Assembly: GCA_019704295.1 (NCBI GenBank)
Contig: AP024596.1
Location: forward strand, 2,016,001-2,080,000
Direction: 5' to 3'
Origin: Sulfolobales archaeon HS-7
GTDB lineage: Archaea; Thermoproteota; Thermoprotei_A; Sulfolobales; Sulfolobaceae
Length of the DNA stretch: 64,000 bases
Numbering within the stretch: the stretch's first letter is position 1; the number at the start of each line of letters is the position of its first letter. Under the pieces are notes generated by a model. It was not told where the DNA came from. It worked only from the letters and a program-made list of their open reading frames with translations, and made no database searches. A program made the position numbers and the translations under genes. Shown piece after piece: positions 47,681 through 60,858 of the stretch.

Positions 47681-48048
47681 GATAGTGCCCAATGTGCAAC
47701 AAATGTTATTTACTATATTAACTAATTATAAGATATAAAAATAATTAAATCTACGTTGTATAATCAGGATGATAGTACGGGGGAATTACGGGAAATTAAA
47801 CCCCATTGCCGACTTCCTAGGCTTAAAAATATTCGGCTATACCCTCTGCTAACTTTTAACTCGTAGAACTGAAAACCTCTTTTTAGCTTTTATTGCTAAG
47901 AAATATATGGTTACTTTTGCTTACTATTAATAAACTTATTTTATATTACTGTCATACTTGTAATTAAGCGAATTTAATTCTAAAGAGACGTGTTTATAAC
48001 TTTTTACTTTATTTAGTTATTCCCTTTAATTACACATTGGACACTGTC
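47681..48048 (-). mobile_element. MITE (family A) truncating the integrase
   Basis: GATAGTGCCCAATGTG ... ATTACACATTGGACACTGTC. Confidence 0.78.
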
Positions 48049-48532
48049 AAGTGAGAGTGAGAAGCCGAAATCCCTCATTGCATATTTTATGTGTCTGAGC
48101 CTTTCTTCTCTAGTCGCTTTGCTCTTTTGTTCCAGAATTTTATCAAACAGCTTTAGATCCTCCTCAGTAACCACGTAACTATTCGTATTCTGTCTTACAT
48201 AATCTCTTAAGAATCTGTTCAGCATCATAAAAAGCAAAGAACGAAACTGAGGATCCTCAACTGCAGTATTCACTACTTTTAACAAATCGTTTATGTCAGC
48301 CTTCTCTATCTTCTTACCGTATACTATTCTCGCAATTTCGTCAGGGGCTAGAAACTGCAGCACTTTCTCTAGGAACTCTTTCGGGGTCTCCCTCAACCCT
48401 TTCTTATATCGCCACCCTGTAGCTTTTGAAATCCCCCATTTGCTCATAAGTTATCCCTTTCTCTTCAGTAACATATGTAAATAGCTGAATTTTTTGCTCA
48501 TTTGTGAGCTTATCTATATCTATTATTGCCAT
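48049..48532 (-). pseudogene. pNOB8-type tyrosine integrase, N-terminal part
   Basis: MAIIDIDKLTNEQKIQLF..GISKATGWRYKKG..FLAPDEIARI; +1 frameshift in a G run near 48435; C-terminal catalytic part missing. Confidence 0.8.
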
Positions 48533-49698: not shown

Positions 49699-49941
49699 CT
49701 AACTTACTAACTCTTCTCCTGCCCTAAGCCTATAAATTCTGAATTTTTTGCCTCCATATTTCATCCACGACCTTGTAATAATCCCTTCCTGTGCCATCTT
49801 CGTAAGTGTTACAAGAATCAAGTTCTTATTATATCTCGTCTTTTCTTCTAAGTAATCTAAAGTAGCCGAACCCTTTGCCGCAAGTATTGCTATTATAGCT
49901 TCCCTCACGCTTAATTTTCCCCTCATTCTCTTCTTTCTCAT
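49699..49941 (-). CDS. plrA: Plasmid regulatory protein PlrA (pRN1 ORF80-like)
   Basis: TL..LE..T..N.N..LVTLT....GII.R.W...GG.K.R.Y...EELV. Confidence 0.85.
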   Translation of the reverse strand: MRKKRMRGKLSVREAIIAILAAKGSATLDYLEEKTRYNKNLILVTLTKMAQEGIITRSWMKYGGKKFRIYRLRAGEELVS

Positions 49942-50465: not shown

Positions 50466-50538
50466 TTATATAGTTTTTCTCAGTAAATCGGAAGGTATTT
50501 CAAAAATTACTCTACTGATATTAGGGCACTGCACATAG

Positions 50539-51849
50539 TCAGATAATTCGAGTCTGTAGTCTAATCTTATCGTTATCCTCATAATTAATTTCACTATTCT
50601 TTAGAACATCTAGAATTATTTCGATTAAGTCATTTATGTCTTTTTGTAGACTTTGCGACTTGCCATCAGGATCTAATACTCTCTTTATAGAGGGCTCTAA
50701 TGTGTAATATAACTTGTTTTTGAGTTCATCTCTACCTATTTCACCGTTATTCTGGCCTATTATTTCTCTCACTAGATCCACAAAGCCACCTTTTCTACTT
50801 CCTATTACACCTCTCGCTGAAGGTAATATGGGAAGCCCGTAATTTTGCCTTAAAATTCTCAATAACTCTCGAACTATTTCCACTTTATTAGTCCTTTTTA
50901 CTACAAGCTTTCCGTTTTTAACTTCTAAGATATCTGATAATCTGTTCCCTTCTCTGAGTGTATTAACCAGAATATCGGGAGTTTTACTATATCTCAACCA
51001 TACTATCGTGTCCAGATCGAAAATATGAACCCTTATGTAAGAATTTTCTGCCATCTGTTCAACTTCATTTTTATCTATTACTATCGGGTTACCGTTATCA
51101 TCTGTAAGTCTACTGAATACTCCATTACTCCATTCTCGTGAGCTTATTTTATTTTCTATTATATCTCTAGCTCTTTTTATTTGATTAGGCGCTAAATTCA
51201 GATCCTCCTCGAATTTTTGCTCAAGGCTACTTTTCAATTCGCTTTCTATTTTTTTAACATAGAACTTTTTCACTTCTTCTCCGCATTTCTCATAAAGTAT
51301 GAGAAAGTCTCCTATCTCTGGGATTATAATTGCCTTCTCCAGTCGTGTTATATCTTCTATTCTATCAAAGTTACCCGTTATTTTTGCTATGGACGATTTC
51401 GCTAGTATACGTGTAGATTTCAAGTTGACTCCTATAAACAAGTGACATGAACATTCTATATCGTTAATACTGCATCCCCACTGCGTATATAAAAGTAAAG
51501 TTAACTTGTGTTTTAATTCTCTCTTTAGATCAGATATATTTTTATTATATATAATATCGTCTGTATAAATATTATCGTCTATGCGTTTAACGTTTAGCTC
51601 ACCGGCTGGATACTCCTCGGAATTTTCGTCATCATGTTGTTGATTAATGTCACAAAAGCAGTTGATATTTGTTCTAAATAATTGGAGCAACACCGTGTTT
51701 ACATCTTTAGCAGGAAGTCCTACTCTATATACTGTATACCTATAACTGTTCTTTTTGTTGCCCTTTTGTACTATATATACATTCGCCGAATCTCCACGAA
51801 AATTATTTAATACTTGACATAGATAGTTACTACTAAGCTCTTCATCCAT
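50539..51849 (-). CDS. KwaB (DUF4868)-like protein with C-terminal extension
   Basis: EVKNGKLVV...ELLRILRQNY..PI pattern; adjacent KwaA-like gene. Confidence 0.5.
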   Translation of the reverse strand: MDEELSSNYLCQVLNNFRGDSANVYIVQKGNKKNSYRYTVYRVGLPAKDVNTVLLQLFRTNINCFCDINQQHDDENSEEYPAGELNVKRIDDNIYTDDIIYNKNISDLKRELKHKLTLLLYTQWGCSINDIECSCHLFIGVNLKSTRILAKSSIAKITGNFDRIEDITRLEKAIIIPEIGDFLILYEKCGEEVKKFYVKKIESELKSSLEQKFEEDLNLAPNQIKRARDIIENKISSREWSNGVFSRLTDDNGNPIVIDKNEVEQMAENSYIRVHIFDLDTIVWLRYSKTPDILVNTLREGNRLSDILEVKNGKLVVKRTNKVEIVRELLRILRQNYGLPILPSARGVIGSRKGGFVDLVREIIGQNNGEIGRDELKNKLYYTLEPSIKRVLDPDGKSQSLQKDINDLIEIILDVLKNSEINYEDNDKIRLQTRII

Positions 51850-51902
51850 AATTTTTCACACCCCTTCAATACTTTTTTATTTTAAGAAAATCTAATATTT
51901 AT

Positions 51903-52502
51903 ATGTTAGATAAGTTAGGAAAATTATTGCTTATACTGAATGAGTATGGAATCGCCTTGTTCTATCTGACGTACGTTACATTTAATCATTTGTTGTCCTT
52001 CTATTTGTCATTAATAGTAGCAATTCTGGTATTTCTCGGTCTTTTTATATTCGTCGTAATTTTCGTGTCCAGTATTCTCCCTGCAAGGACTGCTAGCCGA
52101 CTGATATCGGGAAAGATAATAGAAGCTAGAAGGATTCACTATCAGATCATCTCATTTCAAACTAGTAACGTAATCCCTTTTGTATTAGCCTCCTACGATA
52201 ACGTTATAACCTTAATCATTAGCTGGATCATGTTATTTCTCTTTATAGTACTATCATACAACGATGTTTCGATATTAGCATTGAACCCGTATCTTTTGTT
52301 AAGGGAGTATAGCCTTTACCTCATAAAGGTAGAGATACCCCACTCAAATTACAAAGATTATTACGTATTTTCAAGAGATGATCTTGAAACTAGATCGGGT
52401 CTCGAACTGAATACTGCCCATCTTTATGAGATTGATAACAATTTGTATATTGTGATAAATGTAGAAGGTGAAGAAAACAAAAACACTAGTATGAATCCCT
52501 AA
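51903..52502 (+). CDS. KwaA-like 4-TM protein
   Basis: ISFQTSNVIPF...LALNPYLLLREYSLY motif. Confidence 0.6.
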   Translation: MLDKLGKLLLILNEYGIALFYLTYVTFNHLLSFYLSLIVAILVFLGLFIFVVIFVSSILPARTASRLISGKIIEARRIHYQIISFQTSNVIPFVLASYDNVITLIISWIMLFLFIVLSYNDVSILALNPYLLLREYSLYLIKVEIPHSNYKDYYVFSRDDLETRSGLELNTAHLYEIDNNLYIVINVEGEENKNTSMNP

Positions 52503-52692
52503 AAGGGATTATAGTATTACTTGAGACTACAATTTTGCTCAGTAAACTGGGGAGTTAACACAATTTTTTCTCACGCATATTTTCTTCATTAGATCCCACA
52601 TATGCGCTTTTACTGTTTAGTTAACAGTTTTTCAAAATTCAATGAGAATAATCAGCATACCCTTTTTAATGCTGCTTAATAAACATATGCTT

Positions 52693-52845
52693 ATGAGAAT
52701 TGAAGATAAGGACGAGAAAGGCGAGGGTTACTTAGTTATTGAAAGTAAGGAAGATTTTAAGAAGTTTAAGGAGGACCTACTCAGACTGGCAAGGGAAAAA
52801 GCTAAGGCCCGTAAGCCATCTTATGAGACCCAACCTCCCAAATAA
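52693..52845 (+). CDS. Small protein, putative antitoxin
   Basis: Homolog of 42594-42743. Confidence 0.55.
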   Translation: MRIEDKDEKGEGYLVIESKEDFKKFKEDLLRLAREKAKARKPSYETQPPK

Positions 52846-53107
52846 ACACGATACAGTTTTTTGGATCAGCACTATAAAGTATCCTTATATCACCCGTAAC
52901 CTCTATGGAAAACATGGGATTTCCATACTTATCCTTTCCCAGTTTCTCTCTGGAGTATTTGAAAGGGTTTTCCTGTAATAGTTCTAGTTTCTCTGAAATA
53001 AGCATTATCAGCTTATCATTATACGTATCCGTAGCATACTCTAAAAACTCTCTGTAACTCTTTACCTTCCTCATCATGAACTTCAATTCCCAATCCTTAC
53101 AAACCAC
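52802..53107 (-). CDS. RelE/ParE-like toxin
   Basis: L.ENPF..., SIEVTGDIRILY, FIWEVGSH...Y. Confidence 0.75.
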   Translation of the reverse strand: MVCKDWELKFMMRKVKSYREFLEYATDTYNDKLIMLISEKLELLQENPFKYSREKLGKDKYGNPMFSIEVTGDIRILYSADPKNCIVFIWEVGSHKMAYGP

Positions 53108-53823: not shown

Positions 53824-54354
53824 TCAACCTCGTCTTAATTGGCTTTTTAAAGGGGAAGAGAACGATAGCAGTTGATAATGATAATAATATCCGTGAAATG
53901 AAAGGACCAGCATAACGAACCCCAGGAAGATAGCCGCGCCATTGATAAAAGAGTTATCATACCTATAGTGGGCTAATGCGAACCTCGTCCACTTCCCCTC
54001 TTTCTTTACGTATATCCCTGCCTCAGTGAAAGCGTCAAGAATCATGTGAGAGGGGCCTATCACTATGGATAGGAGCAGAAACCAGGGAATGTCGCCATAA
54101 AGAAAACCCAGAACAAAGAAGGGTATTGACGGGAGCATACCCCACACTGCAGATCTTGGGACCGTGTGGGTCAGCGGAGTCCGGGTAGGTATTGTACCGT
54201 GTCTTGTGTGTATCTCTTTATGTCCCAACCTGTCTATGATGAGGTTTCCAGCCACTGATAGGATCCCTGCTAGGACTAGGTAGTATGAGGTGAAACTACT
54301 GAGAAGCAAGGCGAGGATACCAGCTGTAAACACGTAATGGGTAACGAGTCTCAT
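53824..54354 (-). CDS. DUF1286-family membrane protein
   Basis: M.L.THY.F, D.LGH, RTPLTH, SHM.LD.FTE. Confidence 0.75.
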   Translation of the reverse strand: MRLVTHYVFTAGILALLLSSFTSYYLVLAGILSVAGNLIIDRLGHKEIHTRHGTIPTRTPLTHTVPRSAVWGMLPSIPFFVLGFLYGDIPWFLLLSIVIGPSHMILDAFTEAGIYVKKEGKWTRFALAHYRYDNSFINGAAIFLGFVMLVLSFHGYYYHYQLLSFSSPLKSQLRRG

Positions 54355-54392: not shown

Positions 54393-56294
54393 GTGATGAG
54401 TTCAAAAGTAGCTAAGAAAAAGAGGGAACTAAGCCCAGCTGTCTGGTATGAAGTGATAGGAACTCCTTTCTTTCTTGAAGAAGAGAAGCAGAGAGACCAG
54501 CTTCTTAACGACTTCGCTACCGAAATTAAATCGCATAAATACACGGTAGCGTGGGCAATCGGCAAAAAAACACAGATAGAGATAGAGGAGGGATACTTAA
54601 GAAACTCAACCGAAAGTAAATTCTATTTAGGATTTCTAGAGCAAGATGAAAAGCCGATATTATTCAAATATATTAATAGGCATAATACACTCCCAGAGCC
54701 ACGTAAAGAAATAGATTATGTTACAGATACATATATAAAATTTAAGGACGGAACTTATGGACAAGTAGTATGGCTTGCTGGATTTGAAAAACTAGTACTC
54801 GAGGGAATCCTCAGCGTCATCTATCCGCTCGATATTTCGCCATCACAGACAGAAGTGTTTTTAGAAGTAACTACGGATGATGGGAGCGGAAAATTCGAGC
54901 AACGCTTCAGGAGCTATTTAGGTAGTATACTCAGCAGATCAGCTAGGTACATAGCGCATACGAATATCAGCAGTAACTTGCTAGAGCTTAAGAACAACGC
55001 GGATGACTTACAGTCTAGGATAAACGAAGGGAAACAACCAATAGCGATAAGGGGATTTGTTACTGTTATTGATAATGACATTAGCAGTTTAGAAGCTGCA
55101 ACTGAAAAAGTGCAGTTTCAGTTGAATCGATTCGGTGTGAAAACTAAACTACTGAAGAAAATACATTTCATCTTCTATCAGCTAAAGCACGATAGGTTTC
55201 ATGCTTACTGGAAGTATACTACTAACAACTATGCGGCATTACTGTATCCTTTCGGCGTCTTCAGGATTGAAGAACAAGATAGTATCTTTTTGGGATATGA
55301 CAGGATTTCTGGAAACCCGATCTATATCAACCCATGGCTTACTGGAATTTGGAAAACTAACCCTCACGGTCTTATCACTGGTTTATCAGGCAGCGGAAAG
55401 ACTACCACCGCTGGAGTTTTGATTTATCGCGCAGTTAAGAAATATGATCCTTATATATATGTAATCGACCCGATGAATAACTTTTCTAAGTTTTTCCAAA
55501 AATTTGAAATTCCAGCAAAGATAATCACTCTTGAAAAAGAGAAGCCTATGGGACTGGATCCTGTCAAAATCGCAATGAACTCTGGAGGTGTGTTATCAAT
55601 TAACGATTTTGTAGGGATTTTACTAAGCAGTTATAATATTCCACCTCAAGGTAGAGGATTTGTTAAGAAGGAATTAGAAAGTAGTGAAAACACGGAAGAA
55701 GCCGTAGATAGAATCTGTCAGAAAGACGCTGAGATATGTAAGTATGCACAGGATATGGTTACCGGATATGACAGAAATATTTGGGCAGGGGAAGGAATAG
55801 ATTTCGTTTCAAAGAGAATAGTGATCAACCTCGGTGATATGCCAGATTATATGAGGAAAATAGTAATGACACTTCTAACGGCTTCTACTAGAGCAACGCT
55901 TAACAGAATTGATAGAAAAAGTTACAAACCCGTTTTGATGGATGAGGCACACAGGATCTTTGATGATGAATCTTCAGCTTACTTTGTAGAGAAACTGTAC
56001 AGGGAAGGTAGAGCTTTACACGCCTCGACGTGGACCATTACACAGTCAATCCGTGACTATTACTATAATCAAAGAACTGAGACGATACTAACACAAGCAG
56101 AAACCCAAATCTTGATGAACCATGACGGGAGTGAGAAAGATGCCCTGCAGAAGGCTGGCTTAAATGATGAAGAGATAGAATTTCTGACGAACAATCCAGG
56201 GCGGGGCCAGGGAATATTACGGTTAGGAAGTATCAAGACTTTCGTAAATGTGACATTGACGGAAAAAGAACTCGAGGTGTTGAGAACTGAGTAG
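54393..56294 (+). CDS. VirB4/TraC-like conjugative ATPase
   Basis: NPHGLITGLSGSGKT, VIDP, MDEAH, REGR, ITQS. Confidence 0.85.
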   Translation: MMSSKVAKKKRELSPAVWYEVIGTPFFLEEEKQRDQLLNDFATEIKSHKYTVAWAIGKKTQIEIEEGYLRNSTESKFYLGFLEQDEKPILFKYINRHNTLPEPRKEIDYVTDTYIKFKDGTYGQVVWLAGFEKLVLEGILSVIYPLDISPSQTEVFLEVTTDDGSGKFEQRFRSYLGSILSRSARYIAHTNISSNLLELKNNADDLQSRINEGKQPIAIRGFVTVIDNDISSLEAATEKVQFQLNRFGVKTKLLKKIHFIFYQLKHDRFHAYWKYTTNNYAALLYPFGVFRIEEQDSIFLGYDRISGNPIYINPWLTGIWKTNPHGLITGLSGSGKTTTAGVLIYRAVKKYDPYIYVIDPMNNFSKFFQKFEIPAKIITLEKEKPMGLDPVKIAMNSGGVLSINDFVGILLSSYNIPPQGRGFVKKELESSENTEEAVDRICQKDAEICKYAQDMVTGYDRNIWAGEGIDFVSKRIVINLGDMPDYMRKIVMTLLTASTRATLNRIDRKSYKPVLMDEAHRIFDDESSAYFVEKLYREGRALHASTWTITQSIRDYYYNQRTETILTQAETQILMNHDGSEKDALQKAGLNDEEIEFLTNNPGRGQGILRLGSIKTFVNVTLTEKELEVLRTE

Positions 56295-60699: not shown

Positions 60700-60858
60700 G
60701 TCAATTTAATTTTTTATCAGTAAACTGGGGAGTTATTTCAAATTTTCTTACGTTCTTCTTCTAACGTTAGGATCCTTCCTCATATACTTAACAATTTTTT
60801 AACATTCAATGAGAATAATCAATATATCATTTTTAAATACTATTATCTCTGAGGCAAA

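Follow-up and report, generated by a model that had tools for sequence, protein, structure and literature searches.

We describe a two-gene module in the genome of Sulfolobales archaeon HS-7, located in a 64,000-nucleotide stretch of contig AP024596.1 (positions 2,016,001 to 2,080,000; hereafter the window, to which coordinates refer unless another contig is named). One gene encodes a 199-amino-acid (aa) protein which, judged by sequence profiles and structural modeling, is a genuine but very distant KwaA-family membrane protein; the other, diverging from it, encodes a 436-aa soluble orphan protein. Both lie in an accessory cassette on an integrated conjugative element of the pNOB8 type. The explanation that we favor, with confidence somewhat short of even, is a Kiwa-like module: a KwaA-family sensor would act together with a different, probably DNA-binding, soluble partner to exclude viruses or rival plasmids. 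Kiwa is among the commonest bacterial defense systems, and we know of no described example in which KwaA is not paired with a DUF4868 protein (KwaB).

The 199-aa protein is a distant KwaA homolog

The 199-aa open reading frame (ORF; P0004, 51903-52502, + strand) contains VIPF and LNPYLLLREYSLY and carries the motif NPYLLLREYSLY. It matched six KwaA models of PADLOC and nothing else, with a best E value of 9e-8 over residues 9-184. The NCBIfam KwaA model NF041622 gave an E value of 1.3e-6 and 28.4 bits; because this score lies far under the curated cut-off of 100 bits, the protein is to be regarded as a distant relative and not an equivalog. Its homologs in two further cassettes and in a virus, described below, each match KwaA models only in PADLOC, and the homolog from Acidianus sp. 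HS-5 has a faint precomputed Pfam match to KwaA. When the three cassette proteins were compared with eight archaeal KwaA sequences using hhalign, a probability of 95.9% and an E value of 5e-9 were obtained, and the aligned region comprised the NP motif together with the non-transmembrane C-terminal strands. The 11-sequence alignment was collinear throughout, with N128 invariant and Y136 nearly so.

The AlphaFold2 (AF2) model of the protein, whose underlying alignment included archaeal KwaA sequences, reached a mean predicted local distance difference test (pLDDT) score of 68.7. It featured four long helices (residues 2-30, 33-57, 80-95, and 101-119), in line with the four transmembrane (TM) segments proposed in an earlier, sequence-only reading of this DNA, and the hydropathy profile showed two broad hydrophobic blocks (residues 24-65 and 93-128). 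In the model, the TM2-TM3 loop contributes a hairpin and the C-terminus four strands to a cytosolic β-barrel; Zhang et al. reported the same architecture for KwaA, with a cytosolic β-barrel built from an intracellular loop and the C-terminus (doi 10.1101/2023.02.26.530102). In a Foldseek search against the PDB, the seven best matches were all KwaA chains (E 2e-5 to 2e-3 over about 190 columns), followed by an eighth match at an E value of 0.5. TM helices, a cytosolic β-barrel, and a sequence-model match, the three features by which KwaA membership was judged, were all found, and the KwaA identity first suggested from the sequence is borne out by the agreement of PADLOC, NCBIfam, hhalign, and AF2/Foldseek.

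Comparison with the Kiwa systems of Escherichia coli O55:H7 and ECOR strains (PDB 9mrg, 9mrr, and 9mrx) revealed the same 4-TM protein with a β-barrel formed by the TM2-TM3 loop and the C-terminus, and an NP motif after TM4 in both proteins. The cassette model superposed on E. coli KwaA over residues 1-188, although sequence identity was only about 14-22%. In both cases, the gene belongs to a two-gene module on mobile DNA. The two modules differ in their host, which is a thermoacidophilic archaeon for the cassette, in the partner, which in the cassette has 436 aa and lacks a DUF4868 signal, and in their layout: E. coli Kiwa is an operon, whereas the cassette genes stand head-to-head across 53 bp in three of three loci and do not count as co-transcribed.

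Archaeal Kiwa pairs offer a second comparison (a Nitrososphaeraceae metagenome-assembled genome, JAJPHM010000059, and loci L005, L006, L011, and L012). Their KwaA proteins are collinear with the cassette protein and share with it LxLxLSSY, VIPF, and NPxLLLxGYxxY. Unlike the 436-aa gene, the neighboring genes encode proteins of 299-330 aa that match PF16162 (E 1e-9 to 1e-15) and are co-oriented, immediately downstream of kwaA.

The HS-7 chromosome itself holds a second KwaA about 530 kb upstream, outside the window (G000:C1 ~1484651-1486319; L008:399-2067), which outscores the cassette protein in PADLOC (E 4e-11). A Kiwa-like pair is thus already present in the host. Its 357-aa partner, encoded co-oriented and directly downstream, belongs to the STK_13050 family (named for the Sulfurisphaera tokodaii homolog), which has four known members, and matches no KwaB model. 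The chromosomal pair thus resembles the cassette in combining a Sulfolobaceae KwaA with a soluble partner that is invisible to KwaB models and has few known relatives. However, its genes are co-oriented and adjacent, its 357-aa partner has no similarity to the 436-aa protein, and the two KwaA proteins share only about 18% identity.

The gene pair forms a motif-bounded cassette

The 436-aa ORF (P0001, 50539-51849, - strand; containing NGKLVV and ELLRILRQNY) and the 199-aa ORF diverge from an intergenic spacer of 53 bp (51850-51902), with the lengths, orientation, and spacer that had been read from the sequence. The spacer contains an A/T-rich TATA-like box, TTTTTTATTTTAAG, at 51873-51886, kept in three of three loci, and the spacer with its box TTTTTATTTTAAG is conserved. 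A Shine-Dalgarno-like GGGGTG element lies 9 nt upstream of the ATG of the 436-aa gene, and the kwaA-like gene is probably leaderless, as far as the spacer can be read for promoter signals.

Two exact copies of the 14-mer TTTTNCTCAGTAAA, at 50474 and 52533, bracket both genes as direct repeats on the + strand. Including a copy with one mismatch at 60711, the 14-mer had three matches against 0.31 expected, and at least three were reached in none of 100 shuffles. In the left boundary motif (50474-50499, +), TTTTTCTCAGTAAA is exact, and the copy of a conjugative-plasmid 16-mer that comes after it, TAAATCGGAAGGTATT at 50484-50499, is degenerate. In the right boundary motif (52533-52558, +), TTTTGCTCAGTAAA continues into TAAACTGGGGAGTTAA, which at 52543-52558 differs by one mismatch from the 16-mer TAAACTGGGGAGTTTA. 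Directly oriented copies on both sides, the left one degenerate, agree with what the sequence-only reading had noted. The window contains seven copies of the 16-mer (1.14 expected), six of them in the last 20 kb. We take it to be a recombination motif, as reportedly described by Greve et al. 2004; a full-text literature search on the 16-mer found nothing. A third time, in unchanged orientation, the extended motif (TTTTTATCAGTAAACTGGGGAGTTAT) is found at 60711-60736 (+), flanked by the transfer-region genes for proteins of 661 aa and 654 aa.

The homology between the 20-kb region and the element of Acidianus sp. HS-5 was restricted in BLASTN to 50474-52483 (75% identity) and isolated motif copies, so that the left boundary motif marks the start of the shared DNA. 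In Acidianus sp. HS-5, too, a motif copy lies on each side of the pair, both copies on the same strand, 41 bp beyond the kwaA-like stop codon and 45 bp beyond the other. Two otherwise unrelated elements thus share only this module between the same motif brackets, which upholds the earlier proposal of exchangeable cargo. The cassette was not found among 72,556 PLSDB plasmids, including all Sulfolobus conjugative plasmids of that collection, which marks it as cargo and not core. These data support the view that the stretch is an accessory cassette of about 2 kb on the integrated element, bounded by copies of the element's recombination motif.

The two genes travel together. Of 47 Sulfolobaceae species genomes, the same two carry both genes, and each of the three copies of the 436-aa gene known so far has a kwaA-like gene head-to-head beside it. 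Both evolve under purifying selection, with ratios of nonsynonymous to synonymous substitution rates (dN/dS) of 0.06-0.32. The two genes are adjacent in three of three loci, but these constitute one lineage (75-82% DNA identity) and do not amount to independent co-occurrence.

Elsewhere in Acidianus sp. HS-5 (L030, G532:C1:292657-292785), residues 391-433 of the 436-aa protein are matched (E 4e-9) by a 60-aa open frame that a TGA interrupts, probably what is left of a second, decayed cassette copy.

The cassette resides on a pNOB8-type element

The HS-7 genome, a single contig of 2.15 Mb, belongs to the Sulfolobaceae, whose members include Sulfurisphaera tokodaii and Acidianus sp. HS-5, and the thermoacidophile host supposed from the sequence is thereby supported. 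The last 20 kb of the window are an integrated pNOB8-type conjugative element. Its genes include an AAA_10/TraG P-loop ATPase (54393-56294), a DUF1286 gene (53824-54354), and a Sulfolobus_pRN (PlrA-type) regulator (49699-49941), and the integrase genes of pNOB8 and of a S. shibatae plasmid match 48048-48674 at 80-86% DNA identity. All four features used to recognize the type (transfer ATPase, PlrA-type regulator, SSV/pNOB8-type integrase, and repeated 16-mer) were present. A 144-aa ORF (48013-48447, -) within the integrase-matching stretch is a split or truncated SSV/pNOB8-type integrase that marks an element border. Directly past the right boundary motif lies a gene for a ParE/RelE-family toxin (52802-53107, -; Pfam E 5e-5), so that several accessory modules are stacked between motif copies.

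This setting raises the question of whether the pair might have nothing to do with defense and instead supply accessory membrane and DNA-binding proteins for the element's own transfer, partition, or maintenance. In both elements, some 2 kb separate the pair from the transfer ATPase cluster, and small membrane proteins are common among the conjugation proteins of these plasmids (PMC4390865). However, the pair is missing from all Sulfolobus conjugative plasmids in PLSDB and from 45 of the 47 Sulfolobaceae genomes, which places it outside the conserved transfer and replication set, and the KwaA homology points to a defense family. We consider such a role improbable.

The soluble partner is an orphan

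A word-indexed search of 5.8 billion proteins found three full-length members of the 436-aa family: those of this genome, of Acidianus sp. HS-5, and of one metagenome contig. In the metagenome copy (ENA contig NODE_498; L003:2043-3275), ATA replaces the ATG of the long-form start, so the called protein begins 21 residues later and has 410 aa. When 1.8 billion representatives were searched exhaustively with HMMER and the three-member profile, only a 50-aa fragment was added, and no bridge sequences emerged. No relatives were found in two metagenome scans and one viral scan, or by tblastn among PLSDB plasmids and a phage collection. Across 201 Sulfolobales genomes, true matches were restricted to HS-7 (G000) and Acidianus sp. 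HS-5; weak matches in three others (G163, G331, and G349) proved spurious, corresponding to a YchF-type GTPase and a glycogen-phosphorylase-like gene.

The protein, entire or in parts, had no match in Pfam, PADLOC, NCBIfam, PHROG, or the PDB. The sequence-only reading had identified it as KwaB, an identification for which profiles, hidden Markov models (HMMs), and fold comparison provided no evidence. No KwaB model of Pfam (PF16162/DUF4868) or PADLOC matched it at E values up to 10, and PF16162 was not found anywhere in the genome. With hhalign, the 436-aa family had a probability below 1% against five Pfam-positive archaeal KwaB proteins and also against the 357-aa protein in the KwaB position of the chromosomal locus. 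KwaB HMM scores were no better than those of shuffled sequences, a sequence search of the PDB with the single sequence or the profile gave nothing at E values up to 10, and a scan of the genome contigs toward a deeper KwaB profile returned only the query itself. A likeness by eye between GNFDRIED and GKFNKIED of one archaeal KwaB was rejected, as no profile method aligns the region. With the KwaB identity unsupported, the additional domain of about 85 aa that KwaB was said to have acquired loses its basis as well.

The positive control sets the limit of these comparisons: the 357-aa protein, co-oriented downstream of the second KwaA, also fails the KwaB tests, and the negative results therefore indicate that KwaB homology is undemonstrable and do not establish its absence. 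The identification made in the sequence-only reading amounts to a true Kiwa that has diverged to an extreme degree, in which the first ~320-350 residues would be a hidden KwaB (a Rossmann-like domain and DUF4868) followed by a C-terminal DNA-binding domain. Sulfolobaceae proteins in the KwaB position may be too diverged in general, as the control suggests, and an alignment of five Pfam-recognized archaeal KwaB proteins with three unrecognized neighbors misses even E. coli KwaB in a PDB sequence search. Moreover, the partner of KwaA is KwaB in every characterized system (doi 10.1101/2023.02.26.530102). The missing PF16162 match, zero PADLOC KwaB models, hhalign probabilities, and scores within the shuffled range all speak against a hidden KwaB, as do the lack of bridge sequences among 1.8 billion representatives, the size (436 aa versus about 300-357 aa), and the orientation of the gene. 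On balance, we judge it unlikely; were it correct, the pair would be an ordinary, if extreme, new member of the Kiwa family.

Structure prediction for the 436-aa protein yielded low-confidence models (AF2 pLDDT 34; ESM Atlas pLDDT 0.37), which renders a comparison with the KwaB fold not meaningful, and the ESM Atlas gave no usable feature match for the entire protein or for residues 1-305. Foldseek with the AF2 model returned no row under an E value of 0.03; winged-helix proteins (MukE, STN1, ORC, and the DpnI C-domain) made up most of the list and KwaB was absent, an outcome that counts neither for nor against an identity. In the same model, residues 356-431 follow the order helix-strand-helix-helix-strand-strand, which is that of a winged helix, and a similar unit is possibly located at residues 260-317. 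The C-terminal half possibly contains winged-helix domains, at low confidence; beyond this order in a low-confidence model and the non-significant Foldseek rows, the C-terminal winged helix of the sequence-only reading found no support.

Conservation within the family is highest at residues 281-360, where 78-92% of the columns are invariant. At the center of the conserved block, GVIGSRKGGF (residues 347-356; 50782-50811, - strand) forms a glycine-rich basic loop between two predicted helices; it loosely resembles the nucleic acid-binding GxxG loop of the KH type, and no KH model matches. Prediction of a complex between the two cassette proteins gave no verdict for or against binding (score 0.00, with the fold of the partner uncertain).

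A viral homolog occurs without the partner

Leaving the three cassettes aside, the KwaA-like protein has its nearest relative in gp11 (ORF11-186; MK064563, L032, 4592-5152) of Sulfolobales Beppu filamentous virus 2 (SBFV2), a lipothrixvirus. The two proteins are 47% identical over 184 residues (E 7e-56), and gp11, a full-length homolog, matches KwaA models only. Its gene differs from the cassette gene in its setting, a co-directional viral operon that also encodes a putative nuclease (gp08) and contains small ORFs, and neither SBFV2 nor the wider phage collection has a homolog of the 436-aa protein. This KwaA-like clade is common to plasmids and a virus and can occur without the 436-aa partner, and the membrane protein of the cassette may also work without it.

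Accordingly, the KwaA-like protein might by itself be a membrane factor of mobile elements, serving superinfection or entry exclusion or acting as a decoy that poisons a Kiwa-like complex of the host, with the 436-aa protein as independent cargo, for example a divergently transcribed DNA-binding protein that regulates the kwaA-like promoter. The full-length homolog in a viral operon fits this view; the host chromosome has its own KwaA pair for incoming elements to evade; and a divergent pair with a short conserved promoter and a possible winged-helix protein is the classic layout of a regulator and its target. On the other hand, bacterial KwaA alone gives no defense (doi 10.1101/2023.02.26.530102), the ~18% identity between the cassette and chromosomal KwaA proteins makes mixed oligomers doubtful, and 436 aa with a strongly conserved core of 80 residues is large for a simple autoregulator. 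In addition, both genes move together inside the motif boundaries. A solo factor with independent cargo is a possibility that we take seriously while regarding it as doubtful.

Discussion

Bacterial Kiwa blocks phages and conjugation, and its KwaB binds DNA (doi 10.1101/2023.02.26.530102). Action on both phage infection and conjugation is consistent with the cassette being an exclusion module. If the pair functions as a Kiwa-like module, a KwaA-like tetramer in the membrane would register the disturbance of the envelope upon virus entry or transfer of a rival plasmid. Its cytosolic β-barrel would then hold or release the soluble partner, which would act on the incoming DNA, probably binding it via the conserved C-terminal half. 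The 53-bp spacer would serve as a conserved bidirectional promoter region for both genes. The data show the KwaA homology and fold, the close linkage of both genes and the selection acting on them, the cassette boundaries, and the mobile context, whereas the interaction of the two proteins, DNA binding by the partner, and the outcome for defense are inferred.

Several findings weigh against this explanation. The partner lacks any database match and has low-confidence models, and its DNA binding is a guess from the secondary-structure order and the non-significant winged-helix rows. The viral kwaA-like gene, which stands without a 436-aa homolog, weakens the assumption of an obligate pair. The adjacency of the two genes in the cassettes reflects common ancestry and not independent co-occurrence, since the three loci are of one lineage. 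Furthermore, seven of eight other archaeal KwaA loci have a co-oriented candidate partner, from which the divergent cassette differs; at the eighth, on a short contig (L009), no partner ORF was found.

We do not class the pair as Kiwa because the one defining test open to the KwaB half had a negative outcome and the layout departs from an operon. We class it as a variant built around a KwaA homolog, re-partnered and at most half-confirmed: of the thermoacidophile Kiwa variant proposed from the sequence, the KwaA half, the cassette, and the mobile context stand, and the KwaB half is unsupported. Three features are new here: the partner is unrecognizable, the genes stand head-to-head in a cassette of a conjugative plasmid, and the viral homolog occurs solo.

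A broader and more tentative proposal, which we would not rate above a reasonable conjecture, is that KwaA, as a membrane sensor, is portable and open to re-pairing. Its head-to-head combination with an unrelated, orphan DNA-binding effector on Sulfolobales conjugative elements would represent a second type of Kiwa, and a filamentous virus would have captured the sensor alone, perhaps as a decoy for host Kiwa or for superinfection exclusion. To our knowledge, very few exclusion mechanisms other than CRISPR have been tested in hyperthermophilic archaea. A KwaA clade that is carried by archaeal conjugative plasmids together with a different or unrecognizable partner, and that occurs alone in a virus, would mean that the membrane-sensing half of Kiwa is modular, and it would offer a way into the means by which these archaea and their plasmids keep out viruses and competing plasmids.

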